This document shows, in pieces, positions 10,036-33,869 of a stretch of 35,080 bases of DNA; the stretch's first letter is position 1; the number at the start of each line of letters is the position of its first letter. Position numbers and translations under genes: made by a program. Below the pieces are notes generated by a model. That model searched no databases. It was not told the origin of the DNA and was given only the letters and a program-made list of their open reading frames with translations. The stretch is from an uncultured Nitrosopumilales archaeon (GTDB taxonomy: Archaea; Thermoproteota; Nitrososphaeria; Nitrososphaerales; UBA57): contig CAZXXP010000004.1 of the NCBI GenBank assembly GCA_964644785.1, positions 1 to 35,080 of the forward strand. The letters run 5' to 3'.

Positions 10036-10347
10036 ATGACAAGCGGGAGAAAAAACAGAACAAAGGTTGACATGACTTACAGCATACTATCTAGTGCAAA
10101 GAATGGAGCCCTTAAGACTCATCTTATGAGGCAAGCAAATTTGAATTCTATGCAGATCACAAAAATACTTGACACACTCTTAAGCAACGGCCTAATTTAC
10201 GTGGCAAACGACAAAAACTATTCCCTATACCAGACTACTTCTACTGGAGAGCAGTTCATCGCAAGTTACGAGGATCTATTGAGGTTGATGGGTCAGTCAG
10301 AAGGCAATACAAGACGGATAGAGCTACGTCAGAAGTCTGTCAGGTGA
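10036..10347 (+). CDS. Small winged-helix DNA-binding protein (HTH_45-like)
   Basis: ILSSAKNGALKTHLMRQANLNSMQITKILDTLLSNGLI matches the pattern of about 100-aa archaeal wHTH proteins. Confidence 0.5.
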   Translation: MTSGRKNRTKVDMTYSILSSAKNGALKTHLMRQANLNSMQITKILDTLLSNGLIYVANDKNYSLYQTTSTGEQFIASYEDLLRLMGQSEGNTRRIELRQKSVR

Positions 10348-12541: not shown

Positions 12542-13792
12542 TTGATGCACAAATTCGCCCACATGGCAGACATCCACCTTGGAGCTCATAGAGAACCAAT
12601 ACTGCAAAAGCTTGAAGCAGGCGCTTTTGGCGAAGCCATGGACAAGTGTATTGGACTTGGGGTAGATTTCATACTCATCTGCGGAGATTTCTTCCACGTT
12701 GGCATAGCAGACCTTTCAATTGTGAATGAGGCATTACTCAAGATAAGGCAGGTTCAGAAAGCGGGAATCCGGATTTACGTAATTTACGGGAGTCACGATT
12801 ACACACCGAACGGAACTTCGGTGATCGACATTCTCGACACTGCTGGAGTTCTGACCAAAGTCGCTAATTGGAGCGTTGCTGGCAACAAAGTGAAACTTGA
12901 CTTTTTCGAAGATGACAAGACAGGGGCCAAACTCACTGGAATTTCTGCAAGACAAATTGGCCTTGAAAGGAAATACTATGAGATACTCGATAGGAAGAAC
13001 CTCGAGAAAGAAAACGGGTTCAAGATCTTTGCGTTCCACAGTGCAATAACGGAGTTGAAGCCAGAATATCTCAGCGAAATGGAGTCCCTTCCGATCTCAT
13101 ATTTCCCGAGTGGCTTCGACTATTATGCTGGAGGGCACATTCATGAAAAAGGAGAGTTCAAACTTCCCAACTACGAGAAAATTGTATTTCCGGGCCCTTT
13201 GTTCACAGGCTATGGTAGGGATCTGGAATCCACTGCAAGAGGTGAGCAAAGAGGTTTCTATGTTGTAAGCTTCGATAGCAAAGTAAGGGATGTTGAGTTC
13301 CAAGTTGTAAAGAACTTTGAAGCAATTTATCAGGAATACGATGCTACAGGCAAGAACTCCTTGCAGGTAGACAAGGAGCTCAGGCGGTTAATTGACCTTG
13401 ATGTAAATGGAAAATTTGTCGTGCTAAGAGTCAGGGGAGAACTTGCTGGAGGGAAGATATCTGACATTAACTTCACCGAAATAAAATCTGCCCTTCTTGG
13501 GAGGGGAGCTCTATACTTACATCTGAATAGACGGGGCCTTACTTCAAGGGAATTTCCAAAATTTGTTGCAAGTGGCGATGAAGTCTCCATCATCGAACGC
13601 ATAATAATGAAGGAAAAAATTAACCAAGTAGACGTATCGCAACAAGTACTCAAAGATCCGTTAATAGCGATGGAAGTCCTTAGAATCCTCCGTGAGGAAA
13701 AGAAGACTAACGAATCGAAACATGATTATCAGAAAAGGCTGGTGCAAAGCACAATCGAAATTCTACGGCTGAAGGGGGTCCTTGAGGAGTGA
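12542..13792 (+). CDS. mre11: DNA double-strand-break repair nuclease Mre11
   Basis: Calcineurin-like phosphoesterase motifs in order: HMADIHLG, CGDFFH, YGSHD, GGHIH. The probable start is ATG 12545; track start 12542 is TTG. Its TGA stop overlaps the rad50 GTG start as GTGA. Confidence 0.85.
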   Translation: MMHKFAHMADIHLGAHREPILQKLEAGAFGEAMDKCIGLGVDFILICGDFFHVGIADLSIVNEALLKIRQVQKAGIRIYVIYGSHDYTPNGTSVIDILDTAGVLTKVANWSVAGNKVKLDFFEDDKTGAKLTGISARQIGLERKYYEILDRKNLEKENGFKIFAFHSAITELKPEYLSEMESLPISYFPSGFDYYAGGHIHEKGEFKLPNYEKIVFPGPLFTGYGRDLESTARGEQRGFYVVSFDSKVRDVEFQVVKNFEAIYQEYDATGKNSLQVDKELRRLIDLDVNGKFVVLRVRGELAGGKISDINFTEIKSALLGRGALYLHLNRRGLTSREFPKFVASGDEVSIIERIIMKEKINQVDVSQQVLKDPLIAMEVLRILREEKKTNESKHDYQKRLVQSTIEILRLKGVLEE

Positions 13793-20113: not shown

Positions 20114-20120
20114 TTAAGGT

Positions 20121-20482
20121 TTAGTCAAACATAACATGCTCGGGCTTTATCTTCAGAATAACACGCTTCTGTTTCTCGGTCTTTTCCACGGAAATCTCTT
20201 TCCCATATATTTCATCGAAAGTTTCTCTATATGCTCATCCGCGCCTGTTGTTGTCGTTTGTACGTCTCTTCCCCTTATTGCTCACATAGTGTAAGGATCC
20301 TTACTGTCAATTATTGAAAGAGCGACTCTGGAGTCGCTTTTGACATTTCTGTACTTAATCCCCTTCCCGGTAGCATTGATCAGTACGAGACCGTCATCGT
20401 AATCGACTCAAACAGGTGTAACCTGTGGAGAACCGTCAGGAATTAGAGTTGCGAGATGGGCGAAGTTCTTACCTTCAACCAT
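20121..20482 (-). pseudogene. Decayed PPOX-class (pyridoxamine 5'-phosphate oxidase-like, probable F420/FMN-binding) gene
   Basis: My translation: MVEGKNFAHLATLIPDGSPQVTPV*VDYDDGLVLINATGKGIKYRNVKSDSRVALSIIDSKDPYTM*AIRGR...EHIEKLSMKYMGK, then a 1-nt frameshift near 20198-20204, then EISVEKTEKQKRVILKIKPEHVMFD*. The in-frame TGA codons at 20408-20410 and 20282-20284 sit where this family has conserved Trp. Confidence 0.7.
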
Positions 20483-20675
20483 CTTTACTGCTCTGATAAC
20501 TAAACTGTGTATGAGTCTAGGTGTTGGGCCGATGAGAAGAAAAGAGGAATCATGCTAATCACATTTAGGTTATCAGAACCATCTTTATTGCTTCTTTTGA
20601 CAGCTTTACCATTTATACTAAATTTATTTCTGTTAGCAGACATATTTTCTGTCAAACAGATTTAAGAACAGGATT

Positions 20676-20989
20676 ATGTGCAAGAGGTAAGCTTTGAGGA
20701 AGACCGGCCATGTAATTTTGCCTCTGCATGGAGGACACACTCCTGAACGGCTGGCGAGCAGAATGAAAAACTGTCGGATGAAATGGTTCGCCAGCTCAGA
20801 AGTGAATACAGCCCTAAGGAGTTCTTAGCTAGGATTTCCGATCCATTCTGGTTTCAGGCTTTCGGAGGTGTTTTAGGTTTTGACTGGCACTCTTGGGGTT
20901 TGATGACTGTCGTTGCAGGAGAGTTGAAAGATGTTCTGCAGTTTGACAGGCATGGTGTAAAGGCTGCCGGAGGGAGTACGCTGAGGTAG
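20676..20989 (+). pseudogene. Truncated, frameshifted DUF763-family gene remnant
   Basis: Frame 1 reads ...GHVILPLHGGHTPERLASRM and has an early TAA. After a shift near 20757-20765 the sequence continues KLSDEMVRQLRSEYSPKEFLARISDPFWFQAFGGVLGFDWHSWGLMTVVAGELK...AAGGSTLR*. The LPLHGG...SDPFWFQAFG..GFDWHS pattern matches the DUF763 N-terminus as I recall it. Those proteins are about 380-400 aa, and only about 95 aa remain here. Confidence 0.55.
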
Positions 20990-21087
20990 ATCCGTTTAGA
21001 GTTTCTCAAGCTAGCAGAACGATACAAACTAATTCCCAGAAATGAGGGGATTTACACACCAATACGTTTGGTGAATGAACTTCGAAA

Positions 21088-21097
21088 GTATATATCA
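21088..21097 (+). promoter_or_regulatory. TATA-like box (GTATATATCA, preceded by purine-rich CGAAA) for the FtsZ-like operon
   Basis: Centred about 27 nt upstream of ATG 21119, which implies a leaderless first gene. The downstream genes instead use short gaps, and one has an SD (GAGGT 22057-22061). Confidence 0.35.
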
Positions 21098-21118
21098 TAA
21101 GCTAAGGAACAAGGCTCG

Positions 21119-22063
21119 ATGACCTTACAGAGAAGACTCGGCGTTACAGGAATAGCAACCATAGCAATTACTCTGTTTCTTATTTCACTACCTCATTCTT
21201 ATTCGCAAGGGCCTACACCTGCAATAATCTCTGACTTTACTGTAAGAGATCCCAACGGGAACGATGTAACTAACAAACCTCTCGTAGCAGGAGGCACGTA
21301 CATGTTCTCATTCTCCGTCGCAATAGGAACTACATTAACTGACCAGATAATAATGTCAACTAGCCTTGAAAAAGTCGGAGACAGATATTGGACGCTTGAA
21401 AACAACTACCAAGGTGTCGATACAAATTCTTGGCAGCCAGGAGGCTCGAGAGTGGCGTTCAAGGCTATTCAGGGTACTCCGAAGTTTACCCTCGCAGGAA
21501 AGATTAACTCGAACATGACGGTAGAGATCGTAAAAGACGGCAAAACCACACATTTTCCGGTCAAGGTTCCAGTCCTAAGTATAGCTCTCCAGTCAACACA
21601 AAATGTTTTGGATCAAAAAATCATGAATGTCACAGACCAAGCAATAATTCAGTACCAAAACACACTGAACACTAAGCAGAACCTTTTGGCCGGTAGCCAG
21701 ACAATACCGCAATATGCTACACTTGCGCAGGGTATTATTGAACAAGCGCAGGCACTAGCCAACGTAGGCTATGTGGAAGACGCGACAAAGATTCTATCTG
21801 TAATACCTTCGTCAGGCCTGCCATCTCCTCCTGGCGTAGAATCCACTTTTCTCTACCTTGCGATAGGAATAGGGGTTGTAGCAGCGATATTCGCAGTCAT
21901 GTTCCTGAGAGCCAATTCAGGCAAATCCGTTATTGTAAGGCAGGCTGACGAAGAGGCCAAGAAGTTAGATGTCCTTCTTGTGAAGGCAAATAGAATAGAC
22001 AAAAGCCTTGCTATGGAGATTGAAACCGTTAAGAAAAAGCTTGAGGACCTGACAAAGAGGTAA
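21119..22063 (+). CDS. Type-I membrane protein: signal peptide, extracellular beta-rich and helical domain, one TM, about 50-aa cytoplasmic coiled-coil tail
   Basis: N-terminal GIATIAITLFLISLPHSYSQ is signal-like. The TM segment is FLYLAIGIGVVAAIFAVMFL near aa 243-262. The tail EEAKKLDVLLVKANRIDKSLAMEIETVKKKLEDLTKR is heptad-like. No family recognised. Confidence 0.6.
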   Translation: MTLQRRLGVTGIATIAITLFLISLPHSYSQGPTPAIISDFTVRDPNGNDVTNKPLVAGGTYMFSFSVAIGTTLTDQIIMSTSLEKVGDRYWTLENNYQGVDTNSWQPGGSRVAFKAIQGTPKFTLAGKINSNMTVEIVKDGKTTHFPVKVPVLSIALQSTQNVLDQKIMNVTDQAIIQYQNTLNTKQNLLAGSQTIPQYATLAQGIIEQAQALANVGYVEDATKILSVIPSSGLPSPPGVESTFLYLAIGIGVVAAIFAVMFLRANSGKSVIVRQADEEAKKLDVLLVKANRIDKSLAMEIETVKKKLEDLTKR

Positions 22064-22068
22064 CCGAC

Positions 22069-24798
22069 GTGGCAAGCACACCAAAAAAATATCTGAGTTC
22101 AATCCAACTCGTAGGTTTGGGTGGTACGGGGGTAAACACGATAGAGGCTTTCATAAAGAACAGGAGAGGACTCCTTCCTCTTCTGAAGAAAGAAGGTATC
22201 AGAGTTTCCATGCTGGCTCTGGATGTTGCCGATCATGACATACGGAGTCTTGAAGGGGCTTACAAAGAGTTAAGGGAGGAAATGAAGACACAAGGAATAC
22301 CAGCAGAGAAGATCGATCTCATTGCCAAGACGGTAAAGTTTCCTACACCAGAATCGATGTTCGACTTCATTTCGCGCTACCCGGAATATTTGGAGAGAGA
22401 GGGTGCAAGGAAGCCCAAAGACTATACACCTTGGCTCTCCTCATCATTGGAGATTCCCCCTCTTGCAGGAGGAGTTGGCAGAAAAAGGGCACTCTCAAAA
22501 GCCATCTACGGGTTGAACTATTATCACCTAAAACTGGTGGAGAATCACATGGACTCCTTCAAGGAACACGTCTTTTCATCTACGATTCAGCCTGTCATTT
22601 TCATAATATATGGAATTGGAGGAGGCACTGGTAGCGGAATAATTCCAGACTTTGCGAGACACCTCAGGCATAAGGTTGGCAGCGGCGTTCCAATAATAGG
22701 CATTGCAATATTGCCGTGCGCAGGCGACGACCCTCCAGCCAAAGGTTCTGCCTCTTACGCTTCGCTTTTGGAGCATGAACTGCTGATAGAGAGATCTAAG
22801 AATAACTTCGTGACGCAGAATTATGGAGATACCTACCAGAACCCGTTCACAGCACTACTGATGATGCCTTTGGGACCTGCTTACGGCAGGACAGGGAGTG
22901 TAGTAGATGCGAGGATGTTGATTGACGATGCGATGGTAGACATACTCATGAAGTCTTTGAACTTTGACCTTGCCGACCTCTTTAACAACATAGGCTCAAA
23001 TGTAGATCTTTCGGGGAACTGGGTCCATATAATATCAACGCTGAAGGTTTCTTACCCAGTAGCGGAGTTCATCGACATTACAAAGATATATCTGAAGAAA
23101 TTAGACAGGATAAGAGACCTCCGCAGGGAGAAGAAGGAGGTATGGACTGGTTCAGCAAAGGATGGCAACGGAGGAATCTACGGGATACTGAAGGCCAACT
23201 TTGACGAGCTTACAAACATATACAAGCAGATTCTAATAGAGAAGAACGCCTACGACGAAAAAACCTTCGAGAAAGAACGTGCAAACTTCATTGCCGAGGG
23301 CAAGTCGATCGAGTCTGACTTGATAATGCACCTGAAGGGCGCAGAAGAGTCCATACGCATCCAGGTCAATGAGCTTGCGAAGGCCGTACTTTCCATAGGC
23401 ATGGATGCTCCAGATGGGACGATAGAGGCGAGGATACGCAACCTTGTTGAAAACGTCGTTGAAATGGCATCAGTAATTTCGAAAAACTATCAGAAGTTCC
23501 AAGCATCTGCAAATGACATTGCAGAAGATTTGAGGGGTAGCCTCCCAAGCGCACAACAGCTAACTCACAGGCAATCCCAAATTCTCAACGATACCATCGA
23601 CTTCACAGAGCTACTCGATGGCTACATAACTGGTTTGAGGCTGTACTTAGATACCAGTGCCTTTGCAGACAAGCTGGCAAAGTTAGTCGCAAGGGCGGAG
23701 AGGACAGAAGCCAATCAGGAACTGCTACGCAGGGTGCAGAAGATAATGAACCCCGAACTCGTAGTACTCTTGACACTCTTATCATCCCTATTCACTCCTA
23801 TGACTTCTGAAATCAAAACTGTGGATGCAAGGCTTAGCGATGCAAGGTTGATCAGAAAGGTGCTAGCGGAGAATGTGGAGAAGACAAAGGCGCACCTAGA
23901 GAATCTAGAAATGAAGAAGCGCAGCAGAGAAGGCGAGAAGGATAGGATAGACAAGGATCTAAGCAAGATACGCATTGCTTTTATCGCCGGAAACAAGAAA
24001 AGCTATCTGGAGACCAAGTCCAGAGAGTTTGAGCACGAGTTAAGGGTGATAGCTTCAGAGATAGAAACAGTGAACAGTGAGCTCAGTAGAGGTCAGACTA
24101 AACTTAACGAATATGTTGGGATAGAGAAGAAGTTCGATATTAATGCTGAGCTTAGGAAGGCAATTGCTGAAATTACAGAGCTCAACAATGTGTATTATGA
24201 TAAGATGAACCAAGTGATGAAGGATAGAGGCTACTATGATAAGGTCGCTGAGCTTACCGAGAGCGAGCAGCTGAAGATCATGCAGAGGATCCTTTCAGAA
24301 GAAGAGACCTCTCTGACAGACGAGAACATATTGAAGGAGATCATAGATAGGAAGCACTTCAGAGATTATCTTGTAGGCGCATTGGGAATATTCAGAATTC
24401 CTGCAACTCTGGGTTTGACGGCAGAATACAGAACAGATTACCTCTGGGTTACCGTGGTCTCGCCAAGAGGGATATGGGATAAGGATCTCGATTCAGATGT
24501 CAAGACGATACTTTCAGGCTATATCAAGCAGGACGCTTCAAAGACCATCTACATACGCGAAGTCGATTCCGACGATCCATGGACATTGAGATTCCTGATA
24601 ATCGCTGCGAAGGCTAAGGTGACCATGCTTGAAGGCTACAAAGACATGAAGTCGATTTACGAACAGAGTGTACCATCAGAACGTATTCTATCCCACTCAT
24701 TCCTACTTGAACAAGGAGTGCATGCAGTTGAGTCGGGGAAGCTGGCACCCAACAGCCTATTAGATAGGCCATCACGAGCAGAAGAACTCAAGGAATAA
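22069..24798 (+). CDS. Giant FtsZ/tubulin-superfamily GTPase (909 aa) with extensive coiled-coil region
   Basis: IQLVGLGGTGVNTIEAF (T1, compare FtsZ IGVGGGGGNAV); LAGGVGRKRA (T3-like); GIGGGTGSG (exact tubulin/FtsZ signature, nt 22618-22638); LNFDLADLF (T7 NxDxxD, nt 22960-22977). About aa 340-760 is charged and heptad-rich. GTG start with GAGGT SD 7 nt upstream. Confidence 0.8.
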   Translation: MASTPKKYLSSIQLVGLGGTGVNTIEAFIKNRRGLLPLLKKEGIRVSMLALDVADHDIRSLEGAYKELREEMKTQGIPAEKIDLIAKTVKFPTPESMFDFISRYPEYLEREGARKPKDYTPWLSSSLEIPPLAGGVGRKRALSKAIYGLNYYHLKLVENHMDSFKEHVFSSTIQPVIFIIYGIGGGTGSGIIPDFARHLRHKVGSGVPIIGIAILPCAGDDPPAKGSASYASLLEHELLIERSKNNFVTQNYGDTYQNPFTALLMMPLGPAYGRTGSVVDARMLIDDAMVDILMKSLNFDLADLFNNIGSNVDLSGNWVHIISTLKVSYPVAEFIDITKIYLKKLDRIRDLRREKKEVWTGSAKDGNGGIYGILKANFDELTNIYKQILIEKNAYDEKTFEKERANFIAEGKSIESDLIMHLKGAEESIRIQVNELAKAVLSIGMDAPDGTIEARIRNLVENVVEMASVISKNYQKFQASANDIAEDLRGSLPSAQQLTHRQSQILNDTIDFTELLDGYITGLRLYLDTSAFADKLAKLVARAERTEANQELLRRVQKIMNPELVVLLTLLSSLFTPMTSEIKTVDARLSDARLIRKVLAENVEKTKAHLENLEMKKRSREGEKDRIDKDLSKIRIAFIAGNKKSYLETKSREFEHELRVIASEIETVNSELSRGQTKLNEYVGIEKKFDINAELRKAIAEITELNNVYYDKMNQVMKDRGYYDKVAELTESEQLKIMQRILSEEETSLTDENILKEIIDRKHFRDYLVGALGIFRIPATLGLTAEYRTDYLWVTVVSPRGIWDKDLDSDVKTILSGYIKQDASKTIYIREVDSDDPWTLRFLIIAAKAKVTMLEGYKDMKSIYEQSVPSERILSHSFLLEQGVHAVESGKLAPNSLLDRPSRAEELKE

Positions 24799-24812
24799 TG
24801 CAGAATTGATCA

Positions 24813-27212
24813 ATGACTGCCAGATCTAAACGCGTCTCCCTAGACTTTCTACGTAGGAGGATTGAATCTGAAAAGGAGGACCTTGCAGACCCCCTAGTAA
24901 AGGAAGCGCACTTTCGTAGACTGCTACTTCGTATATTGACAGCTTCACTATTCTTTGCTAATACTGCACTATTCACGATTCTGCTTCCTTTCTACCCAGT
25001 CGGCCTAGCTCTAATGTTGGCTCTTGTAGCGGGCATAATAGGATACGTCTTTCCTGCTGCAGGTTTCTTTACCAGTGTCATGTTAAGCATACCAGCTTTG
25101 GCATACCAGACTGGTGTGCCGCTGTGGTGGCTAGCAATTTTGGCGATATTTGCAATCGGTTTTTCTGTCAGAATTTTCTTTGACTCTAACAGTGCGTTCA
25201 CAGCTTCAATAGGGATGCTGGTCGCTGCAGTAACTCTTACGCCTGCTTACTTTATCATAATCCCTATCATAATAGCTGTTGGATTATTCCGTCAGAAAGA
25301 GAAAGTTTTTGCCCCGCTTGCTGTCGTGATAATGTTTCTGATTTTTTTCATACCTATTCACCATGCTGAATTTTCTTCCATTCTGAAAGCTTCGCTTGGA
25401 GAAAAGATCCAGACGATGCGAGCCGAGGAGATTTTCAGCTCAATGAACAGTCTTGCAATTCCCCTGTTCCATCAACTCAGTATCAGCGTTAGACCTGCAC
25501 CAAAATCATTCGATCTGCCAGCGTTGTCAGAAGCGTTTGGCTCCGCCTTCCAGCCCAGCGGATTTTTCCATCCTTACCTCTTTCTCATGATCGACAGGCT
25601 GATCATATTCTTCTATCCCATCTTGTTAACAGTGACACTATCAGTTTCTTTAGTCATCGAAAGGTTTTGGCATTGGTTAAGAGATAGGAACGCTGCCGTA
25701 GCACCCAGTATAAAATTCTCCAGCATTCTCACCATATTCGTTGGAACGGCAGTTTTCATACTTCCGCTTGTCGCCTTATCCCCAGCGCTGAGATATCTCA
25801 CATCAATAGATAGCGCCATGCCTTCGGAAGCTATTACTGGCAGCAACGCTCTGGCTGCTCTGATAGCGTCTGCAGTTACTATTGGGTTTTTAGTAACGAT
25901 AGTTTCGCAATGGTCGTTAAGGAGAAACTCCATAGCTAATACGGCTTCAGCTGTATTAGGAAAAAGCAAGACGTTATTCCCCATACTCGAGAATCTAGTC
26001 AAATATGTCTCCAGTGTAAATCAAAATAGTCAAGGGATCAGCATATCCGAAGAGGTTGCACAAGTAGCTATGGCGGATGAAGATCTCAGGCTCACTCAAA
26101 AGAACATAGAGACCTTACGCCCTGTGGTTATGGCGCAAAGACTTGCAAGGCTCAACAATATAGGTCAGGATCTACCGGGAATCAAGGCATCCGTAAACCT
26201 CAAGCTCGGTAATTACTACATTGACAAGGTAGCCAAATACAACTCGATGGTAGAACAGGTTACAGGATTTGGGATGCAGGGCTTGAAGAAGATCACTGAA
26301 CCTACAACCGATCGAATTAGCGAAATGGCAGACGATCTGCTGAGAGTGCAGCAGACATTAAACGAGATGTATTTCGAGCTTGCTGAGAAGGTCTTAGAAG
26401 CCACTAAAGGTGTTATCGAAACGATAAACCTTGAGTTTGAACACATAGATACAACTTCGGTTGAAGTGAGCAGGAAATTCCTCGATGAGAAGAAGGGTGA
26501 AGTTGCAGTTGAGTATTTAATTAATACACTGATAGAGCTGGATGCAAGGTACGGGAAGTTATTGCAGCAGATCGTTGAGAGGGAGGATTCCATTACAATC
26601 GGGATAAGAAAGATATACTCTTTTCAAATGCTCCCTATGTTCGAAACTCTGGGTAAGGCCGAAACATCCTCGCAGTCTTACGGAGCGATAGTTAAGCTTG
26701 GTGAAGCAGTAAACCGTTCAGGTACTGTAAGTATGACATACCTTGCAGAGACGATGACTAGGTTTCAAATCATTCAGGACGGCCTCAAAGTAATATCCTC
26801 CGAACTTATGTTGCACATTGGGGAGCTTGAAGGGCTCAACGATGCAAGAGCTTCGGGCTTTAACTGGGGTAAAGATACAAACGTCATGATCGAGCTGGAA
26901 ACGGCGATAAAAGCAATGCAGAGTAGGGAAAAGCTTGGAATAGAGGAGAGGATGGCAAATGCGGAAGTTGCCTCAAAGCATATAGAGCAGGCTACGAAGA
27001 CAGTTTCTCAGTACCTAGTGATGAGCGAACTCATACTGTTATGTCCCTTGCTTGACCAAATAATTGATTCCAAGCTCAGGAGCTCCGGCGCGGTGAAACC
27101 TGAAGAAATACCTGTTGCACAGAAGTATGCGAAGCAGTTGCTGAGGCTATACGCGTCTAGGCACGCTGATTCTGCCTATGATATTATGCTGAATAGGTTG
27201 CAGCCTAAATAG
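24813..27212 (+). CDS. Polytopic membrane protein (about 10 TM, aa ~35-370) with a ~430-aa C-terminal all-helical soluble domain
   Basis: Successive hydrophobic helices after a basic N-terminal segment (RSKRVSLDFLRRR). The C-terminal half is hydrophilic and Leu/Glu/Lys-rich. It starts 14 nt after the FtsZ-like gene. No family recognised. Confidence 0.65.
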   Translation: MTARSKRVSLDFLRRRIESEKEDLADPLVKEAHFRRLLLRILTASLFFANTALFTILLPFYPVGLALMLALVAGIIGYVFPAAGFFTSVMLSIPALAYQTGVPLWWLAILAIFAIGFSVRIFFDSNSAFTASIGMLVAAVTLTPAYFIIIPIIIAVGLFRQKEKVFAPLAVVIMFLIFFIPIHHAEFSSILKASLGEKIQTMRAEEIFSSMNSLAIPLFHQLSISVRPAPKSFDLPALSEAFGSAFQPSGFFHPYLFLMIDRLIIFFYPILLTVTLSVSLVIERFWHWLRDRNAAVAPSIKFSSILTIFVGTAVFILPLVALSPALRYLTSIDSAMPSEAITGSNALAALIASAVTIGFLVTIVSQWSLRRNSIANTASAVLGKSKTLFPILENLVKYVSSVNQNSQGISISEEVAQVAMADEDLRLTQKNIETLRPVVMAQRLARLNNIGQDLPGIKASVNLKLGNYYIDKVAKYNSMVEQVTGFGMQGLKKITEPTTDRISEMADDLLRVQQTLNEMYFELAEKVLEATKGVIETINLEFEHIDTTSVEVSRKFLDEKKGEVAVEYLINTLIELDARYGKLLQQIVEREDSITIGIRKIYSFQMLPMFETLGKAETSSQSYGAIVKLGEAVNRSGTVSMTYLAETMTRFQIIQDGLKVISSELMLHIGELEGLNDARASGFNWGKDTNVMIELETAIKAMQSREKLGIEERMANAEVASKHIEQATKTVSQYLVMSELILLCPLLDQIIDSKLRSSGAVKPEEIPVAQKYAKQLLRLYASRHADSAYDIMLNRLQPK

Positions 27213-27213
27213 A

Positions 27214-28272
27214 CTATACGCTTGCTGCTTTTGTCAGGTAGTCTTGCAGTTCATCAAGCAGTAGATTGGATATTCTCTGCGAGATGTCAGATAAGTTCTT
27301 GGTAGTAATTGCATTGTTGACAATTTCAACAAGGTGCTTGCCTATCTTGGTTTCGACGACTGGGAGAAGTCTCCTAATGCTGCGAATGGCTTGATCTATT
27401 TCTCTTTGTTTACCGAGTTCAGTACTTACCAGCAATTCGTTTACGGCGAGTGTCAACAGCATGAAATAGGAGAGAGAAGACCAGTTCGGGTGCATTTCTC
27501 TGGCATATTGAGTCCACTTCTTGGATATCGGGGTCTTTGAATGGACTGTTGTCCCAAGCTCTGCGAACAATTCAGAAACTGTTTCGTTTACAGCCAGCGG
27601 AGAGTGGGATTTTATCGCCTCAGAAAAATTGACCGTCACCTGTCCAAGGTTTGTCTCTGTACCCTTAATCAATCCCTCTGCCGCGGTCAAAATACTCTTT
27701 GCATGAACTTCTGCATTCCTCCATTCTCCCTGCCCTATTTCGTTCAACATATCGCGTGTTGGAGAAATCATTGACCATATGTTTATCATTGATTCGTAGA
27801 GATAAACTACGAACAGTAAGTCTTCCCTCTCAGCCTGCTTCTTCTTCTGCACTTCTTCTTCTAATCTCCTCTTGCTGGCCTGCAGAATCTCCGAGACCTG
27901 ATTCAATATACTCAAAGCACTACTACTGCTATTTGTAACGAGAACTAGGCTCGCAGGTTTTGCATTCTCCGTGTAGCTGACCTTGATAGAAGAATTCCCT
28001 TCTTGACTGATACCATTTATCTGAGAATAGTTCAATGCGATAACCGTTGCAAGTTTGTTAGAAAATAGTGAAGCTTTCTGTTCTACGATAATCCTCCTCT
28101 CGGTTAGCGTAAGCTTAACCTTGCCTCTGCCCTGAAGTTTTATGTCATCGCTTATTGCAATGATTCTTTCTGGTTCCACTTTACATTGCCGTTCATGTGG
28201 CATAAGGTAAAAAGCATATCTCAGGAAATGGTTCTTATCCTCAGCCGTTACAGATGTGTGTATGGAAGGCAC
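27214..28272 (-). CDS. Hypothetical protein: N-terminal PH/GRAM-like beta-sandwich plus helical C-terminal domain
   Basis: ERIIAISDDIKLQGRGKVKLTLTERRIIVEQ...VIALNYSQINGISQE...SIKVSYTE...ASLVLVTN is followed by the helix LSILNQVSEILQASKRRLEEE. This is the strand/helix order of PH-like folds, read by pattern only. An alternative start is ATG 28203. Confidence 0.45.
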   Translation of the reverse strand: MPSIHTSVTAEDKNHFLRYAFYLMPHERQCKVEPERIIAISDDIKLQGRGKVKLTLTERRIIVEQKASLFSNKLATVIALNYSQINGISQEGNSSIKVSYTENAKPASLVLVTNSSSSALSILNQVSEILQASKRRLEEEVQKKKQAEREDLLFVVYLYESMINIWSMISPTRDMLNEIGQGEWRNAEVHAKSILTAAEGLIKGTETNLGQVTVNFSEAIKSHSPLAVNETVSELFAELGTTVHSKTPISKKWTQYAREMHPNWSSLSYFMLLTLAVNELLVSTELGKQREIDQAIRSIRRLLPVVETKIGKHLVEIVNNAITTKNLSDISQRISNLLLDELQDYLTKAASV

Positions 28273-29596
28273 TCAACAGGAAACCGTCCTCATTCCATGT
28301 CCCGTAGGACATAAAGCCCTCACGGGTATGACGCAATGCCCAAGATGCGGCCTTCCAATAATTTTGTATGAGAAAGAGCTGATAGATATTGTAGACAGGT
28401 TCAAGACCCTCTCACAAAACTTTGCGAAGGTTCAGCAGTTGTTTCCAATTGGTGTAGGCCTATGGGGCTCCAAGCTCCTACTAGCAACAGTCGCTTCACA
28501 TGATATCAGGCTGACAAAGTTTTCAACAATTGGTGCTTCGACTACAGATATTCAGATGTTCGCATCTGCAAAACAGAAGATGATACCCAGAGACAATGTG
28601 GAAAACATTCTGCGCAAGATAAATTACCCTCTGAAGATTGTTGCAGACATGAGAGGAGGTATATGGAAGAGAGCGGAGATAACTGCAAGGAACGATTCAG
28701 CTCTTGCGGATAAAATAAGCATTCTCAGAATTAATGATATAAAAGAAGAGCAGGTCGCTTTCTTCATGGGTTCTTTGAGCGAGGGAATTGTGGCTGGGGT
28801 TACACCATTCCTTTGTTCCGCTGCTAGAGAAAACAATCCTAATGTCTTAACCATATTTCTCTTGACTCTGCCAGCTGAAGACACGTCTGAAGAAGCGCAG
28901 TTCAATGCCTACTGTGGCCTTGCTATGCTTCTCCAATCGGGCATGCATACCGGAATAATTATGCAAGAATCAGCCCTTAAGGCCCTTAAGGGGATTTCAA
29001 GATCTGGTGCAGAATTGAATGCAGATTTCCTACTCCCTACGATGTGTGACATATTGCTCGCGATTGGTGTCGAAGGCCTAGCAGAGATATCCCATATTTC
29101 GCAGTCGTTCAGACTGCAGGTCCTATCGCCCGCCTTTGCTTATGGGGCAAGCTATGAAATTTACGGAAGCCTTGCAAATATCGTAGAGTACGCGATGTAC
29201 AAAATCTTGGTGCCAATAAACCCGGAAAACGTCATTGCTGCAGTTACCATCGCAAGAATTCCAAGAAGACTCCTTGAAATAGTCGGTAAGGATGCCCTCG
29301 AAGAGCAGTTTACAAGTTGGACTAGGCGCCGCTTCCCGGCAATAAGAGGAAGTCTGCTTAGAATCATTACAAAAGAAGAACCGTCAGACAGAATAGATGC
29401 AATTCTCTTACTAGGTGGCAAGAACCTAGAAGCTATTACCAATTCGATCAAAGATGGCTACATCGAGTTCAAAGCTAACTTGGATACAATGGACCTATGG
29501 GAGGAATATTCGATAACTACTGACGAATTGAAGAATATCGAGGAGTCAATATTAAAATACGACAAGAGAATAAGCGCGCTTCTCAAGAAGAAGTAG
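28256..29596 (+). CDS. Zinc-ribbon protein with a putative nucleotide-site-degenerate FtsZ/tubulin-like domain
   Basis: N-terminal CPVGH-x11-CPRCG. Then FPIGVGLWGSKLL (T1 position), RGGIWKRAEI (T3 position), AFFMGSLSEGIVAGVTPFLCSAARE (T4 position, GGGTGSG lost), LTIFLLTLPAEDTSEEAQFNAYCGLAMLL (T5/H5 position) and IDAILLLGGKNLEAI (C-terminal subdomain). Order and spacing follow FtsZ. The probable start is ATG 28262. Confidence 0.5.
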   Translation: MCMEGTQQETVLIPCPVGHKALTGMTQCPRCGLPIILYEKELIDIVDRFKTLSQNFAKVQQLFPIGVGLWGSKLLLATVASHDIRLTKFSTIGASTTDIQMFASAKQKMIPRDNVENILRKINYPLKIVADMRGGIWKRAEITARNDSALADKISILRINDIKEEQVAFFMGSLSEGIVAGVTPFLCSAARENNPNVLTIFLLTLPAEDTSEEAQFNAYCGLAMLLQSGMHTGIIMQESALKALKGISRSGAELNADFLLPTMCDILLAIGVEGLAEISHISQSFRLQVLSPAFAYGASYEIYGSLANIVEYAMYKILVPINPENVIAAVTIARIPRRLLEIVGKDALEEQFTSWTRRRFPAIRGSLLRIITKEEPSDRIDAILLLGGKNLEAITNSIKDGYIEFKANLDTMDLWEEYSITTDELKNIEESILKYDKRISALLKKK

Positions 29597-32500
29597 ATTT
29601 TCTTTGGAAAACCCTTGAGAGCACTAATTGTGTTGTTATCGAAATTGCAGCCACTGCTATTATTATGCCTGTAGCAAATGCAGCAATGGTTGCGTCTGAG
29701 CGTACTAAGTTAATCATGAAGCTAAGGTCTCTGTCAGTTATTTCGGGGCTGACAACCTGCTGCTCCCCCCTGTATTTTATCGTGAACTGATACTCGCCAG
29801 GAATTAGGTGTTCATACAATGGATTATCACTCTCCTTTATCTCTTTATGCGTAGGTCCCTCCATCGTCAGCTCAGCATCGGGGATTACCAACCCAAATGG
29901 ATCTCTAACGGTAAATGAAACGTCGAATGTTTTCAGATATGCCACAACATTCCTGGTGCTGTGGCTGTACATCAATGAGATTACCATTCTATCCCCCAGA
30001 TTGGTGAACTCTGGTTTGGCGAGCTTACCGTCCAACAACACAACTATCTTATCAGCAGAAGAGCGCAGGTCATCGATTAGGAGGTTGCTGGGAACAGTTA
30101 TGTTGAGGACCCCCACGCTGCCTTCCTTTCCAACAAGCGTGAGCTTAACAGCTCTAACATCAGTTGATGATAGAGCGCTCGTAACTGTTGAGTTCGATAT
30201 AATCGTAATCAATTTATCAGAATAACTAACATGCTCGACCTGTCCTGTTTGAAGCTTTCCATCGCTACGCAACTGCACAGTATGTTCTATCGTACTCCTC
30301 TCCAAGAAACTTCCTCCCATCGAATCGATTATGGGGAATACTGGAGATACTTCCATAACCGAAAATGTATAATTTGTTCTTCTGGGTCCGCTAACAAAAA
30401 TCGGATATTTGGATAGTGGAGTAGATGAACTCACAAGGACCATTTGGCCTTCGGCTTTCAGCGCTCTGATTTCAGGTGCTTGAGGGTCTACAGGTGTCCA
30501 TATAGCCGCATATGGTAAACCCACGATAAAGTCTCTACCTGCATCTGTCCTCATGACTATGTTGGTGTCACCTCTCGTATATACTGTAAAACCATCAAGG
30601 GGTGGGTACATCGTCGCCTTGTAACTCTCAGTTATATCTACAGCCCTTCCTTCATAAGTAACAACTTCAATGGGACCTCCCCACTTGGGGCTCAGCTCAT
30701 AATACATCTTGGGATCCTTGCCTAGATTCTGTATGCCCAAGGGGTATCTTGTTGGGGATATCTCGAACAGACCTTCTGCAGGGTCTACAAATAGCCAGTC
30801 CCTGTCTACTCTGAACTCGATCCAGGCATGCAGTGTAAGATATGGTATCTCTTGCAATGGTGACATCTCCATGATTCCAATTAAAGGTCTTACCGGTATA
30901 TCCACCGATCGCAAGAGGCCGCCATAGAATACAACAATGACCCTCGAGTCACCGGTTACCTTCTGGTTGCTTAGTGCTCCTCCCGTAGCCTGCAGTTCCG
31001 ATGCTATATGTGCTATACTTTGAGGCTTAATGTTGGTTGCTGGCTCGTAATGCTGAACGACAAAGGTGAATAGGGCCCTTGCCTTGTCTACGGGGCTTGC
31101 AATCTGAGGTACATTTGCTACCGCAAGTATGTTCTCAGCGAGTGCCTTTACTTCAGGTGTAGTTGCCATAAGGTCGTTCAGCACTGCAAGATTTTCAACA
31201 CTAACTGCCTTACCAATAGCCCGAAGGTTATCCCTGCTTCGACTCGAAAATATCTTTAGAGGGACAGAAATACTATCTGCAGAGTCTGCAGTCTCGTTTA
31301 TCTTCGCTTCAAAGGCCCCGGTTCCATTTTTGAGGAACCTTAGCTCATATGCAATAACATAGGACTGCCCAGACTGAAAGTTCAGCACTATGCTCTTGGG
31401 ATTCACGCTTATGCCATCGAAACTTGATTGTGCGTCTAGCCTTACCTCGCCCGGCCTGTCATTCGTATTTGCTATCTTCAGCCAGATATAGGCAGATTCT
31501 CCTTGGAACTCCGTCTTTGATATGGTCGTATTTGCCCAGACTATACCGACCTTCGGTAGAAACACGTAGTTTGCGGTTAGATTGAAAGGTCTATCTATTC
31601 TAATGGAAACTAACAGACCCGTGAACCTGTTCCCGTCCACAGTCCAGAACCTGAACGAATAGTCCCTGACCCTCTTTGTTGTGGCAAATTCAGTGGTTAA
31701 ATCTGTATCATGCCACTTGTTTCCGTTAGATATTTCGGCCAAACTCTTCGGCTCGGTGGCTGCATAAATGAAGAATTGTAGTGTATAAGTTGATGTTACG
31801 ACCTTTGGGCCGTTCATCAGGACTGTAGTGTTCGTTTTGGAATCTGAAATATTCCCCATCCAGCCTCTGAAATCGTATCTCCTGTTCTCAGCTATGTTCA
31901 CTATCTGCGGAGTTGAGATACTGGCCTGTGTATTGTTGTCGAACCATCCGGCTCCCAATGATGGTGGGGGAGAAATGGGTAGAATGCTCCTCACCGTTAG
32001 AAAGTACTGTGTCTTGAACTCAGCTTTATATGTTCCCTGAGAGTTTATCGTCAGAATCCTTGCCTGCGTAGTTGTCCCATCTGACCACCTCGTAAAGACA
32101 TAGCGTATTCCAGAGGTTCCATTGACTATCTGGTTTGGCACGCCTAATGTATGGATCTCGCCCTGCACCCATCTATATTGTTTCGGAAGATCTGTAGGTT
32201 GAATGAGTGCCCCATCAACAATGAATGAGGAAACTCGTGGCGATGAATCTATAGTTACAGTTAGAAGTGGAAGTATGACGAGAACTGCCTGCGCAGACCT
32301 CCTTACAATGCCGCTGTTTGCCTCAATCAAAAAGAGGAAGTTCCCTGCACCAGAAGACTCAGAAGCCCTGACGCTCAGCAAGGCATTTCTTGTTACACCT
32401 ACTTCCAAGCTAAAGGAGTTGGGAACTATTGAGATTTCGACATCGCTGGGAATACCCGTGGACCTCATGTCTATCAGACCGGAGAAGCCTCCCCGTGAAA

Positions 32501-33869
32501 CTACGGAGATATTGAAAAGGCCTTGCTTCCCTTGCGCTATTACAAGATTTTCTGGTCTGATCGAAATCAGAAAGTCCCTTACAGGTATGTTCAGTCTCAG
32601 CGTTGAGGACTTTACCAGAGGTGTTCTAGTGGCTGTAATTGTAAGGTCTAGAGATCCTGGAGCTGCTGTGAGGTTAAGCGAGAGTGTCAGCGTCGCTGTT
32701 ACTACGCCGTTGGGAGGAGGCGTAACTTCAGGAGGGTTGATACTGGCGAACAATCCAGGCACTAGCGTAGGAAGGGATAAAGTAACGGCAGAGTTGAAAC
32801 CTTCCGTCGACTGCACAACTATCTGGAACGTCCTTGTAGAACCCAAAGTCATAGTTACATCGGATGGAGCTATTGAAACTACGAAGTTCCCAGCAATGTT
32901 CAATATTAGTGTATTTGTTCCTGTAATGTAGCCAGCCCTTGTAGCTGTCACGCTTATCCTAGCAGATATTGTCAGTGCAGATAATTGAATCGGAGCCCCC
33001 TCGGAGGTAACTCTAATCGTTATTATTGAGATTTTGGACACGACCGCCGGGTTTGGAATTGCGTCTATTGCTATAACAAGCCCTGGCAACGGCTTTACCA
33101 TAATAGTAACAAGAAAAGAGTGAGTTATCTGAGGGGAACCCGGATATATACCTACGACGAAACCACTATAGGTGCCTGGAAGCGCGGTAAGGGCAGCATC
33201 TAGTGTTAGCGTTGCCGATATCCAGCTCTGCTTGGGAACCAAGACAGACCCGGTGAGGGTAACCAAGACACCTGGAGCCTGATTGTTCCATATCCAAGAA
33301 AGTTGGATCTGACCGTTGAAGTTTGAGATAGAGCTAATATTCACAAAGGCTGAGGCCGATGCCTGCTGTCTTACTTCAACCGTGCTAGGAGATACCGAAA
33401 TCGCAAAGTCACCCACATAAAGAGTAAGCGTCACGTCATTTGTACGGACTGTGGACGCGGTATCATTCGCAAACTTCCCGTTAGCTATGATAATGTAAGT
33501 TCCCGGGGGAGTGCTAGTTGTCGTGCTGATAGTAAGCGTAACAATGGCATTGAGTCCCGTTCCACCCGTAGGCACGGTAAGCGACGAAGGCGAGAAAACG
33601 GCAGAGGACAAAGGTATCCCTGACGGACTAATACTTACGACATTCAAGTTGAGTGTCGGTCCCAAAGGCGGAGGATCGTATTTCTGTCCCACCACTGTCA
33701 CAGTAAACTGTTTTTGAGCACCTTTGGGAATCTCTGCCGAAGTAGAATCAGGCGTAAGCGTTATTGGCGGACCGGCCTCGACATGTGGGAGAAAAGCGAA
33801 ATATGCAATAGCAAGGGCTAGACTAGTGACAAGTAAAACATTGCCGCTAGTTACCTTCGGATGCACCAC
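29583..33869 (-). CDS. Very large (1428 aa) cell-surface protein: signal peptide, repeated Ig-like/beta-sandwich domains, transglutaminase-like core, C-terminal TM anchor
   Basis: N-terminal LLVTSLALAIAYFAFLPHVEA. There are at least 3 repeats of the pattern F.(I/V)S(V/I).P..v....G.....v.V.S..GF.G...L. InlB-B-repeat-like units are present (Y.LTV...GAGWF...RYDFRGW). The TGase-like core reads GDSRVIVVFYGGLLRSVDIPVR...HAWIEF...FVDP (nt ~30780-30960). The C-terminal segment is AAFATGIIIAVAAISITTQLVL. GTG start. Confidence 0.8.
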   Translation of the reverse strand: MVHPKVTSGNVLLVTSLALAIAYFAFLPHVEAGPPITLTPDSTSAEIPKGAQKQFTVTVVGQKYDPPPLGPTLNLNVVSISPSGIPLSSAVFSPSSLTVPTGGTGLNAIVTLTISTTTSTPPGTYIIIANGKFANDTASTVRTNDVTLTLYVGDFAISVSPSTVEVRQQASASAFVNISSISNFNGQIQLSWIWNNQAPGVLVTLTGSVLVPKQSWISATLTLDAALTALPGTYSGFVVGIYPGSPQITHSFLVTIMVKPLPGLVIAIDAIPNPAVVSKISIITIRVTSEGAPIQLSALTISARISVTATRAGYITGTNTLILNIAGNFVVSIAPSDVTMTLGSTRTFQIVVQSTEGFNSAVTLSLPTLVPGLFASINPPEVTPPPNGVVTATLTLSLNLTAAPGSLDLTITATRTPLVKSSTLRLNIPVRDFLISIRPENLVIAQGKQGLFNISVVSRGGFSGLIDMRSTGIPSDVEISIVPNSFSLEVGVTRNALLSVRASESSGAGNFLFLIEANSGIVRRSAQAVLVILPLLTVTIDSSPRVSSFIVDGALIQPTDLPKQYRWVQGEIHTLGVPNQIVNGTSGIRYVFTRWSDGTTTQARILTINSQGTYKAEFKTQYFLTVRSILPISPPPSLGAGWFDNNTQASISTPQIVNIAENRRYDFRGWMGNISDSKTNTTVLMNGPKVVTSTYTLQFFIYAATEPKSLAEISNGNKWHDTDLTTEFATTKRVRDYSFRFWTVDGNRFTGLLVSIRIDRPFNLTANYVFLPKVGIVWANTTISKTEFQGESAYIWLKIANTNDRPGEVRLDAQSSFDGISVNPKSIVLNFQSGQSYVIAYELRFLKNGTGAFEAKINETADSADSISVPLKIFSSRSRDNLRAIGKAVSVENLAVLNDLMATTPEVKALAENILAVANVPQIASPVDKARALFTFVVQHYEPATNIKPQSIAHIASELQATGGALSNQKVTGDSRVIVVFYGGLLRSVDIPVRPLIGIMEMSPLQEIPYLTLHAWIEFRVDRDWLFVDPAEGLFEISPTRYPLGIQNLGKDPKMYYELSPKWGGPIEVVTYEGRAVDITESYKATMYPPLDGFTVYTRGDTNIVMRTDAGRDFIVGLPYAAIWTPVDPQAPEIRALKAEGQMVLVSSSTPLSKYPIFVSGPRRTNYTFSVMEVSPVFPIIDSMGGSFLERSTIEHTVQLRSDGKLQTGQVEHVSYSDKLITIISNSTVTSALSSTDVRAVKLTLVGKEGSVGVLNITVPSNLLIDDLRSSADKIVVLLDGKLAKPEFTNLGDRMVISLMYSHSTRNVVAYLKTFDVSFTVRDPFGLVIPDAELTMEGPTHKEIKESDNPLYEHLIPGEYQFTIKYRGEQQVVSPEITDRDLSFMINLVRSDATIAAFATGIIIAVAAISITTQLVLSRVFQRKSTSS

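Follow-up and report, generated by a model that had tools for sequence, protein, structure and literature searches.

A cluster of five genes at positions 21119-29596 of a 35,080-nucleotide stretch of DNA from an uncultured Nitrosopumilales archaeon (GenBank assembly GCA_964644785.1, contig CAZXXP010000004.1, positions 1 to 35,080; hereafter the window) most likely encodes a membrane-anchored cytoskeletal or envelope-organising system with two tubulin-superfamily proteins, the mechanism of which we infer. The components of this system are as follows: (i) g1 (21119-22063, plus strand, 314 amino acids (aa)) is a single-pass membrane protein of type I-like topology according to hydropathy and the family alignment, (ii) g2 (22069-24798, plus strand, 909 aa, GTG start) is a GTPase assigned to the FtsZl1/Tubulin_2 family, (iii) g3 (24813-27212, plus strand, 799 aa) is a polytopic membrane protein with a helical cytoplasmic domain, (iv) g4 (27214-28272, minus strand, 352 aa as called) is a soluble protein with a putative PH/GRAM-like N-terminal module and a helical C-terminal domain, and (v) g5 (28256-29596, plus strand, 446 aa; the NCBI gene call starts at 28262) is predicted to be a second tubulin-superfamily protein with a CetZ-like fold. 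The view that these genes form an operon-like chromosomal module, with g1, g2, g3 and g5 as its conserved core and g4 as a frequent accessory, is well supported.

Conservation and distribution of the module

The scan for g2 relatives covered 185,579 species-representative genomes, 196 of which carry one; the best 80 loci were analyzed, and the locus counts given here come from iterative profile searches over 84 loci. Full-length homologs of g2 with 37-89% identity were found in Thaumarchaeota/Nitrososphaerales, Dehalococcoidia/Chloroflexota, Bathyarchaeia and Methanomethylicota, where the most specific annotation is 'tubulin-like domain-containing protein'. Homologs of the other window genes are encoded near g2: g1 in 79 of the 84 loci, directly 5' of g2 and separated from it by a median of about 1 nt, g3 in 76, g5 in 73, g4 in 48, and g6, a surface-protein gene that converges on g5 in the window, in 11. 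In one Dehalococcoidia genome, BLASTP matched the neighbors of g2 to g1 (40% identity), g3 (21%, E 3e-41), g4 (22%, E 0.006) and g5 (23%, E 4e-43), the five genes standing in the window order and all being co-directional.

Three gene orders were observed: g1+ g2+ g3+ g4- g5+ g6- in Thaumarchaeota, as in the window; g1+ g2+ g3+ g4+ g5+ in Dehalococcoidia; and (g4+) g1+ g2+ g5- g3+ (g4+) in Bathyarchaeia. For the completeness counts we used the 52 loci with enough flanking DNA, and the set of g1, g2, g3 and g5, often with g4, is present in 49-50 of them, in Nitrososphaeria, Bathyarchaeia and Dehalococcoidia. By lineage, g1, g3, g4 and g5 were found in 14 of 14 Dehalococcoidia loci and g1, g3 and g5 in 26 of 27 Bathyarchaeia loci, and the set was found in 9-10 of 11 Thaumarchaeota loci. 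Retention at this frequency, through three rearranged gene orders and in two domains of life, refutes the explanation that unrelated genes are neighbors here by chance, the probability of which is practically negligible; the cluster, put forward as a candidate in a preliminary description of this DNA, proves to be a genuine conserved module. Since g4 escapes detection in many Bathyarchaeia even when loose thresholds are applied, we regard it as an accessory component.

The components of the module differ in their conservation: between the window clade and its Dehalococcoidia sister clade, identity is about 54% for g2, about 36-40% for g1 and about 15-27% for g3, g4 and g5. In a neighbor-joining tree of g2, which was midpoint-rooted and carries no support values, a Dehalococcoidia clade in which g5 has kept its nucleotide site intact is the sister of the window clade, and the Bathyarchaeia form a separate clade. 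This placement suggests that the module crossed the boundary between archaea and bacteria at least once.

Distribution and transfer bear on two alternative readings. According to the first, the module is the host cell-division machinery or an essential part of it, replacing or supplementing FtsZ or Cdv; the combination of a tubulin-superfamily GTPase with membrane anchors recalls FtsZ with SepF or FtsA, and the hosts include Thaumarchaeota, which divide with Cdv and are not known to do so with FtsZ. We consider this reading quite improbable, because the distribution is sparse (196 of the scanned genomes, most members of the phyla concerned lacking the module), because transfer between domains, inferred at least once, is unusual for core division genes, and because FtsZl1 proteins coexist with conventional FtsZ (Makarova and Koonin, PMC2875224).

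According to the second, the module is a mobile element or a conflict system, serving TubZ-like DNA segregation or anti-virus defense. The patchy distribution, the cross-domain transfer, the much faster evolution of the partners relative to g2, and the presence of Tubulin_2 genes on Borg elements and plasmids would be consistent with it; however, several observations make it very unlikely. No PADLOC families were found, matches to PHROGs were at noise level only (E 0.02 or worse), and no relatives occur on 2.9 million viral contigs, so a defense or phage origin was rejected. The module contains no conserved DNA-binding adaptor, integrase or partition site, two of its four core proteins are integral membrane proteins, and in the window it is flanked by archaeal housekeeping genes (Mre11/Rad50, two PurP paralogs, Nre, CorA and 2-oxoacid:ferredoxin oxidoreductase).

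Some loci depart from the general pattern. Solo g2 paralogs without g1, g3 and g5 nearby (L003, 9983-12865, Bathyarchaeia; L037, 2138-4906) are among the exceptions in the flanked set, and L037 is a second g2 copy in a metagenome-assembled genome that also carries the module locus L033. In three Bathyarchaeia solo g2 paralogs (P0094, P0099, P0102) a zinc ribbon (CPxC...CxxC) is fused to the C-terminus of g2, whereas in the module it is found at the N-terminus of g5. Locus L045 (DATHCJ010000009), labeled 'Candidatus Limnocylindrales bacterium', has the Bathyarchaeia gene order, and its g2 nests within the Bathyarchaeia clade of the neighbor-joining tree; it is either a mis-binned archaeal contig or a further archaea-to-bacteria transfer. 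In one metagenome-assembled genome (L008 and L009; CAZKFJ01, contigs 1 and 4), the complete module occurs on two contigs at the same coordinates and with the same gene lengths, which is probably an assembly or strain duplicate and not a true second copy.

Assignment of g2 to the FtsZl1/Tubulin_2 family

A Pfam profile check, which the preliminary description had proposed, placed g2 above the gathering cut-off of PF13809 Tubulin_2 (49.8 bits, cut-off 27, residues 14-221) and above that of PF00091 (38.7 bits, cut-off 33); the score against the FtsZ equivalog TIGR00065 of NCBIfam is far below its cut-off (21.3 bits, cut-off 295.2). PF13809 is also found on all but 3 of the 120 g2 homologs listed, and these 3 have no precomputed domain. 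The Tubulin_2 model has been equated with the 'FtsZ-like' proteins (FtsZl1) of Makarova and Koonin 2010 by Santana-Molina et al. 2023. On the strength of the passed threshold and of this equation, we assign g2 to FtsZl1/Tubulin_2 at the family level; a protein that had been presented as unclassified, with membership in FtsZl1 as an open question, can thus be placed. The FtsZl1 family was defined from sequence analysis (Makarova and Koonin 2010, PMC2875224), and because it has no experimentally known role, the assignment does not reduce g2 to a member of a characterized family with a known role.

The sequence motifs of the GTPase domain (residues 1-330; 22069-23058, plus strand; delimited by Pfam, AlphaFold and Foldseek) were located by a motif scan: T1 is GLGGTG at residues 16-21 (22114-22131), T4 is GGGTGSG at 184-190 (22618-22638), and the T7-like motif is NFDLAD at 298-303 (22960-22977). 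In an alignment of 74 homologs, spanning the identity range given above, G16, G18, G21, F299 and D300 are invariant, G182, G184-186, G188 and D303 are invariant or nearly so, and the catalytic motifs never decay. The AlphaFold model built from these homologs (predicted local distance difference test (pLDDT) 89.4, predicted template-modeling score (pTM) 0.75) consists of a GTPase domain (11-328), a series of helices (331-717) and an alpha/beta domain (724-899), with helix H7 at 278-296, the T7 loop at 298-303 and helix H8 at 301-308. Foldseek aligned the first ~330 residues over about 330-360 columns to CetZ, FtsZ, TubZ and tubulins, with probability 1.0 and E values as low as 9e-7. The tubulin/FtsZ fold with intact T1, T4 and T7, first read from the motifs, is thereby borne out by model, structural match and conservation. 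The T7 motif of FtsZ is NVDFAD, and the pattern NxDxAD is common to FtsZ and g2. No Pfam match to a canonical FtsZ_C or Tubulin_C domain was obtained for g2.

Helical stalk, C-terminal domain and plasmid relatives of g2

After H8, the chain of g2 continues with one more strand and then with about 390 residues of long helices (residues 331-719; 23059-24225, plus strand). AlphaFold models this region, mostly with pLDDT >85, as 11 separate helices of 10-56 residues (331-717), the longest of which are 578-633 and 641-689. Of the 'hundreds of residues of coiled coil' announced in the preliminary description, the helical nature holds; in the model, the region 331-717 agrees better with a helical bundle or stalk than with a single extended coiled coil. 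The alpha/beta domain that follows (residues 720-909; 24226-24798, plus strand; delimited by alignment and AlphaFold) is highly conserved, with W793, P799, W803 and W838 invariant in the homolog alignment. Its profile found no relatives among PDB sequences or in Pfam, and hhalign gave a probability <1% for its match to the C-terminal domain of g5; the idea that it might be a displaced FtsZ-type C-terminal domain thus finds no support at the sequence level.

Plasmids were scanned for g2-like genes by translated search, and 'tubulin-like domain-containing' genes were found on plasmids of Rhodococcus, Brucella and Agrobacterium. Plasmid pRHL2 of R. jostii RHA1 (L084 11860-15440; NC_008270 163335-166915) and plasmid p3 of Brucella anthropi (L085 8854-12513) each carry a short tandem pair of Tubulin_2 genes, of about 510 and 565 aa with a protein of about 100 aa between them (514, 99 and 568 aa in pRHL2). 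In the GTPase domain, both pRHL2 proteins match the g2 profile (E 1e-57 and 1e-62) and have the LPC-GD motif and RALAKAIYG in common with g2. The 568-aa protein also matches the C-terminal domain of g2 (profile positions 775-890, E 4e-12), with nothing between the two domains. Since these domains are contiguous in this relative, we consider the GTPase and C-terminal domains to be an ancestral unit and the g2 stalk to be an insertion between them. One member of the Rhodococcus pair has the T4 motif AGGTGSG with a T7-like DLAD, and the other has an intact GGGTGSG with a divergent T7. No homologs of g1, g3 or g4 were found at the plasmid Tubulin_2 loci, and our literature search on plasmid tubulin pairs returned nothing relevant.

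The neighbors of the plasmid pairs suggest a different reading of the whole family, namely that proteins of the g2 type are soluble and, in a GTP-dependent way, help complexes such as metallo-enzymes to assemble or mature, and that the membrane proteins of the module are their substrates or docking sites, not cytoskeletal anchors. The Brucella pair adjoins genes for a CbtA/B cobalt transporter, CobW, DUF6925 and a MoxR-type AAA+ protein with NorD (vWA), the Rhodococcus pair adjoins aliphatic amidase and nickel-transporter genes, and an association with vWA proteins has been reported for FtsZl1 too (PMC2875224). None of these metal-handling genes occurs in or near the module in the 84 loci, however; the partners conserved in it are a second tubulin and proteins of the membrane, and the plasmid pairs themselves have no known functional assignment. 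We find this reading very improbable indeed.

The architecture of g2 bears on the main rival to a polymerizing GTPase. In this rival, g2 would be a dynamin-like mechanochemical GTPase or switch that forms no filaments; its G domain would dimerize with itself or with g5, depending on the bound nucleotide, and the stalk would relay the resulting conformational change to g1 and g3 for membrane fusion, fission or tubulation, or for signaling. The succession of a G domain, a helical hairpin stalk of ~390 aa and a globular domain resembles the layout of dynamin-like proteins, a canonical C-terminal polymerization domain is undetectable in g2, and the plasmid relatives occur as pairs, which suggests hetero-dimers as the functional unit; absence of filaments is also listed by Makarova and Koonin (PMC2875224) as a possibility for FtsZl1. 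Against this, all characterized tubulin-superfamily proteins polymerize according to the literature, and g2 retains an FtsZ-like T7 (NxDxAD) with invariant F299 and D300, which would be sensible for head-to-tail assembly. The profile search, moreover, found no similarity to stalks of the dynamin family, yielding only insignificant coiled-coil matches. We judge a dynamin-like g2 to be rather unlikely.

The predicted second tubulin-fold protein, g5

The g5 family profile matches PDB sequences of Asgard tubulin (E 3e-11), BtubB (2e-10), TubZ (5e-10) and CetZ (6e-10), with FtsZ also among the matches (range 1e-9 to 3e-11). The AlphaFold model of g5 is of moderate confidence (pLDDT 67, pTM 0.65). 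Its best Foldseek match is CetZ 3zid (E 3e-14, TM-score 0.71-0.74 normalized to the target), and FtsZ and gamma/beta-tubulin are matched as well, with 350-470 aligned columns; all these matches extend over both domains. Model and profile together predict g5 to be a second tubulin-superfamily protein with a CetZ-like two-domain fold, in line with its earlier portrayal as a zinc-ribbon FtsZ-fold paralog with a degenerate nucleotide site. The zinc-ribbon-like motif CPxxH...CPxC lies at residues 15-31 (28298-28351, plus strand), and an N-terminal zinc ribbon is found in Thaumarchaeota and Dehalococcoidia.

The T4 loop of g5 is degenerate in the window (GSLSEGIVAG; 28769-28795, plus strand) and in its clade, where it reads SLSEGIVAG or GETLVSG; it is also degenerate in all Bathyarchaeia, where it reads WDGIGSA or SEGxxS, and has the canonical form GGGTGSG in Dehalococcoidia and in one Thaumarchaeota group (group 2). 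Given that the g2 tree separates the window clade from Bathyarchaeia, the GTP site of g5 appears to have decayed at least twice independently. No conserved acidic motif was found by manual alignment in the H7-T7 region of g5. Loss of the GTP site and T7 is tolerated by g5, whereas g2 retains every residue required to bind GTP and to support T7-mediated hydrolysis in trans.

The g5 family is tiny. A word-indexed homolog search found 10 and then 30 proteins, and we took the family size from an exhaustive HMMER search, which covered 1.84 billion cluster representatives and found 131 matches at E <=1e-3 and 58 at <=1e-30; all are annotated 'hypothetical protein', and no canonical tubulin families are reached at E <=1e-3. 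Between g2 and g5, only the S4-T4-H4-S5 stretch aligns (hhalign probability 81-85%). Sparse CetZ-like proteins have been reported, without genomic context, in Chloroflexota-Dehalococcoidia (Santana-Molina et al. 2023); these are plausibly g5 orthologs with intact sites.

In some Bathyarchaeia, g5 is longer. The g5 open reading frames (ORFs) of L076, L077 and L080 (644-653 aa) appear to have an N-terminal extension of about 250-300 residues without a Pfam match; they were called as the longest ORF, so that the extension may in part be a start-codon artefact, and database proteins of 597-658 aa also have it. Bathyarchaeia g5 homologs P0155, P0156, P0158 and P0159 likewise appear to carry an N-terminal extension.

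Membrane partners and accessory proteins

Hydropathy marks both g1 and g3 as integral membrane proteins, as had been supposed for the partners of the GTPase. The g1 protein has an N-terminal hydrophobic signal-like segment (7-25), an ectodomain of about 220 aa and one transmembrane segment (245-263), followed by a charged cytoplasmic tail of 51 residues; the type-I-like topology with a cytoplasmic tail is thus upheld. This tail is strikingly conserved in the family alignment, R264, L283, D294 and L308 being nearly invariant. In g3, 8 clear transmembrane segments (residues 41-364) precede a helical cytoplasmic domain of about 430 aa; the large domain agrees with the preliminary description, and the number of transmembrane segments may be 8 or more, not necessarily the ~10 counted there. 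The g3 family as a whole retains a polytopic region rich in proline and the helical domain in the cytoplasm. Neither the g1 nor the g3 profile has relatives in Pfam or among PDB sequences.

We considered whether g3 is the 'membrane-associated P-loop GTPase' of the euryarchaeal FtsZl1 operons. The string ASAVLGKS (378-385) fits the pattern [AG]xxxxGK[ST]; because its positions are unconserved in 85 homologs, this Walker-A-like string was taken as chance and the candidate was rejected. In four Bathyarchaeia loci where g4 is undetected (L047, L050, L052, L053), the g3 ORFs have 926-962 aa, about 130-160 residues more than usual, which could reflect a fusion or a replacement of g4 function.

The g4 alignment contains a putative N-terminal PH/GRAM-like module of about 90 aa with a conserved 'G-KG-L-LT-x-x-I-x-F' block, and an invariant W184. 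The PH/GRAM-like label thus keeps its basis in a conserved N-terminal block typical of such modules and gains no match above threshold: hits to GRAM (0.0067), bPH_3, bPH_1, PH_trem and Vps36 GLUE are all sub-threshold and concern 1-2 of 36 members each, and the g4 profile has no significant match among PDB sequences. Because g4 homologs of 320-328 aa do not have the first 23 residues of the window protein, its true start is probably Met24, at about 28203; with this start, the overlap between g4 and g5 disappears and a divergent intergenic region of about 55 bp remains.

The g6 gene (29583-33869, minus strand, 1428 aa) encodes a surface protein that converges on the cluster, as previously noted, with a signal-like N-terminus, a transglutaminase-like core (Transglut_core, 25.1 bits, cut-off 23) and a C-terminal transmembrane anchor according to hydropathy. 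It occupies the same position in Thaumarchaeota loci, was found once 5' of g1 in Dehalococcoidia (L038), and is absent elsewhere, which makes it a lineage-specific accessory.

Proposed mechanism

We propose the following sequence of steps for a membrane-anchored system with two tubulins: (i) g2 would bind GTP via its invariant T1 and T4 loops, (ii) g2 would assemble head-to-tail, with T7 (N-F-D-L-A-D) completing the active site of the neighboring subunit, (iii) g5 would co-assemble with g2 as a structural or regulatory, non-catalytic subunit, that is, as a heterodimer partner, cap or nucleator, (iv) the stalk and C-terminal domain of g2 may dock on those parts of g1 and g3 that face the cytoplasm (the tail and the helical domain, respectively), and (v) docking would fix the polymer under the membrane and couple it to the envelope via the g1 ectodomain (and g6 in Thaumarchaeota). 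The repeated decay of the g5 nucleotide site and T7 would, in this proposal, be due to their being dispensable. The output would be GTP-dependent organization or remodeling of the membrane and envelope, apart from the division machinery. Like archaea, cultured Dehalococcoidia have an S-layer and are not known to possess peptidoglycan, which would fit an envelope-linked role and transfer between such hosts.

Taken together, from GTP binding to membrane and envelope organization, these steps are the best explanation of the module that we can offer, and the chances that they hold as a whole are about even. A narrower version is tentative and, in our estimate, possible though doubtful: an obligate heterotypic cytoskeleton in which a catalytic g2 and a CetZ-like g5, which lost its GTP site repeatedly, are co-assembled on g1 and g3 anchors, and which was exchanged between archaea and Dehalococcoidia. 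If true, it would be an independent prokaryotic counterpart of the division of labor between alpha- and beta-tubulin.

Several points weigh against a polymerizing, membrane-tethered pair of tubulins. First, g2 has no recognizable FtsZ/tubulin C-terminal domain, and that of g5 shows no profile similarity to the C-terminal part of g2; because of this difference, longitudinal contacts of g2 may differ from those of known protofilaments. Second, the closest annotated relatives of the g2 GTPase domain are the short plasmid tandem pairs without membrane partners, so that proteins of the g2 clade are not always tied to the membrane. Third, confidence in the model of g5 is no more than moderate, with convergence in one run out of five, and the comparison of T7 in g5 rests on manual alignment. 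Finally, no experiment has been made on any FtsZl1 protein, and FtsZl1 may not form filaments (Makarova and Koonin, PMC2875224).

Locus organization and expression signals

All six ORFs of the preliminary description are present in the window, and the three co-directional genes are separated by 5 nt (g1-g2) and 14 nt (g2-g3), as stated there. The TATA-like box noted in front of g1 reads TATATATCATA (21089-21099, plus strand; 20-30 nt before the g1 ATG) and is a candidate archaeal promoter of g1-g2-g3. The Shine-Dalgarno-like GAGGT ascribed to g2 was likewise found (22057-22061, plus strand); it lies 7 nt from the GTG start of g2, on its 5' side, and within the last part of g1. Scans for bacterial sigma-70 promoters and terminators gave counts equal to the shuffled expectation, and such bacterial models are uninformative for an archaeon. 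The region of about 1 kb 5' of g1 (20118-21118) is free of ORFs of >=100 aa on both strands, an unusual feature in a window so densely filled with genes. Farther upstream, positions 10324-12447 and 12542-15816 hold two tandem PurP-type paralogs (DUF1246 and DUF1297) and a gene for an Mre11-like phosphoesterase that overlaps one for a Rad50/SMC-like ATPase.

Novelty and significance

The family of g2, established by sequence analysis, and the general idea of membrane remodeling are already known. The literature search for a description of the module in Bathyarchaeia, Dehalococcoidia or Nitrososphaeria returned nothing relevant. As far as the searchable literature shows, the following appear to be new: (i) a conserved module with a CetZ-like second tubulin, (ii) the distribution of this module and its inter-domain transfer, (iii) the H7-T7-H8 region in the FtsZl1 subfamily of g2, and (iv) the insertion nature of the g2 stalk.

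No branch of the tubulin superfamily is more divergent than FtsZl1/Tubulin_2, which reviews and phylogenies set aside and which has no known function 15 years on. In the module, FtsZl1 is found in a compact and very well conserved version, and its partners are defined: a second tubulin-fold protein, a putative PH-like protein and two proteins of the membrane, which make the questions of what FtsZl1 does and whether it polymerizes experimentally addressable. Retention of T7 in g2, insertion of the stalk and the recurrent loss of the GTP site in g5 bear on the diversification and spread of tubulin-family polymers, and transfer of a five-gene cytoskeletal module between archaea and bacteria would be unusual.

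Comparison with known systems

The closest described system is FtsZl1 itself, with an FtsZ-like domain at the N-terminus, a long stretch of coiled coil or helices and a globular domain at the C-terminus in about 1000 aa (PMC2875224). The g2 protein has the same three-part architecture and the GGGTG[ST]G motif, and its length lies in the FtsZl1 range of about 900-1100 aa. The C-terminal domain was called 'mostly alpha-helical' in 2010, whereas that of g2 is mixed alpha/beta, and T6-H7 of FtsZl1 could not be identified at that time (Makarova and Koonin, PMC2875224), whereas H7-T7-H8 are clearly present in g2. The operon partners described for FtsZl1 are a vWA protein, Ser/Thr kinases and an OmpA-like protein and, in Euryarchaeota, A2, a membrane-associated P-loop GTPase and A1 (PMC2875224). 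In its position directly upstream of FtsZl1 in the euryarchaeal operons, A2, a membrane protein of about 290 aa, resembles g1. The vWA, Ser/Thr kinase, OmpA and P-loop GTPase partners are absent from the module: Pfam detects no such domains in g1 or g3-g6, and the conserved partners in the 84 loci are only g1, g3, g4 and g5. In their place, the module has a second tubulin-fold protein along with g3, which is polytopic, and g4, which is putatively PH-like. The 2010 set did not include the hosts of the module (Nitrososphaeria, Bathyarchaeia and Dehalococcoidia), and a membrane-remodeling machine apart from the divisome was already hypothesized there for FtsZl1 (Makarova and Koonin 2010, PMC2875224).

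CetZ (PDB 3zid, 4b45, 4b46), which represents archaeal tubulin-superfamily proteins of cell shape, is the best structural match of g5 over both domains and is among its best profile matches. The g5 proteins differ from CetZ in forming a tiny separate family that has lost the GTP signature in two clades, that has no conserved T7 acidic motif, and that is always encoded with an FtsZl1-type partner. The pairing of a cytosolic tubulin-superfamily GTPase with potential membrane tethers is a feature common to the module and to FtsZ with SepF, FtsA or ZipA; the anchors of the module are unrelated to SepF and FtsA, g2 has no FtsZ_C domain, and the distribution is sparse.

Co-encoding of two tubulin-like proteins is found in the plasmid Tubulin_2 pairs as well. 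Unlike the module, these pairs consist of proteins of about 510-570 aa that have no helical stalk and are both g2-like, instead of g2 with a CetZ-like partner, and their neighbors are metabolic or metal-handling genes. Obligatory co-encoding of two paralogous tubulin-fold proteins is also a feature of the alpha/beta-tubulin and BtubA/BtubB systems; g2 and g5, however, are separated by a very large distance and are not sister paralogs, and g2 has the 390-aa stalk and a novel C-terminal domain. As in those heterodimers, the nucleotide site and T7 of the module are under unequal constraint in the two partners, which suggests a division of labor between a catalytic and a structural subunit.

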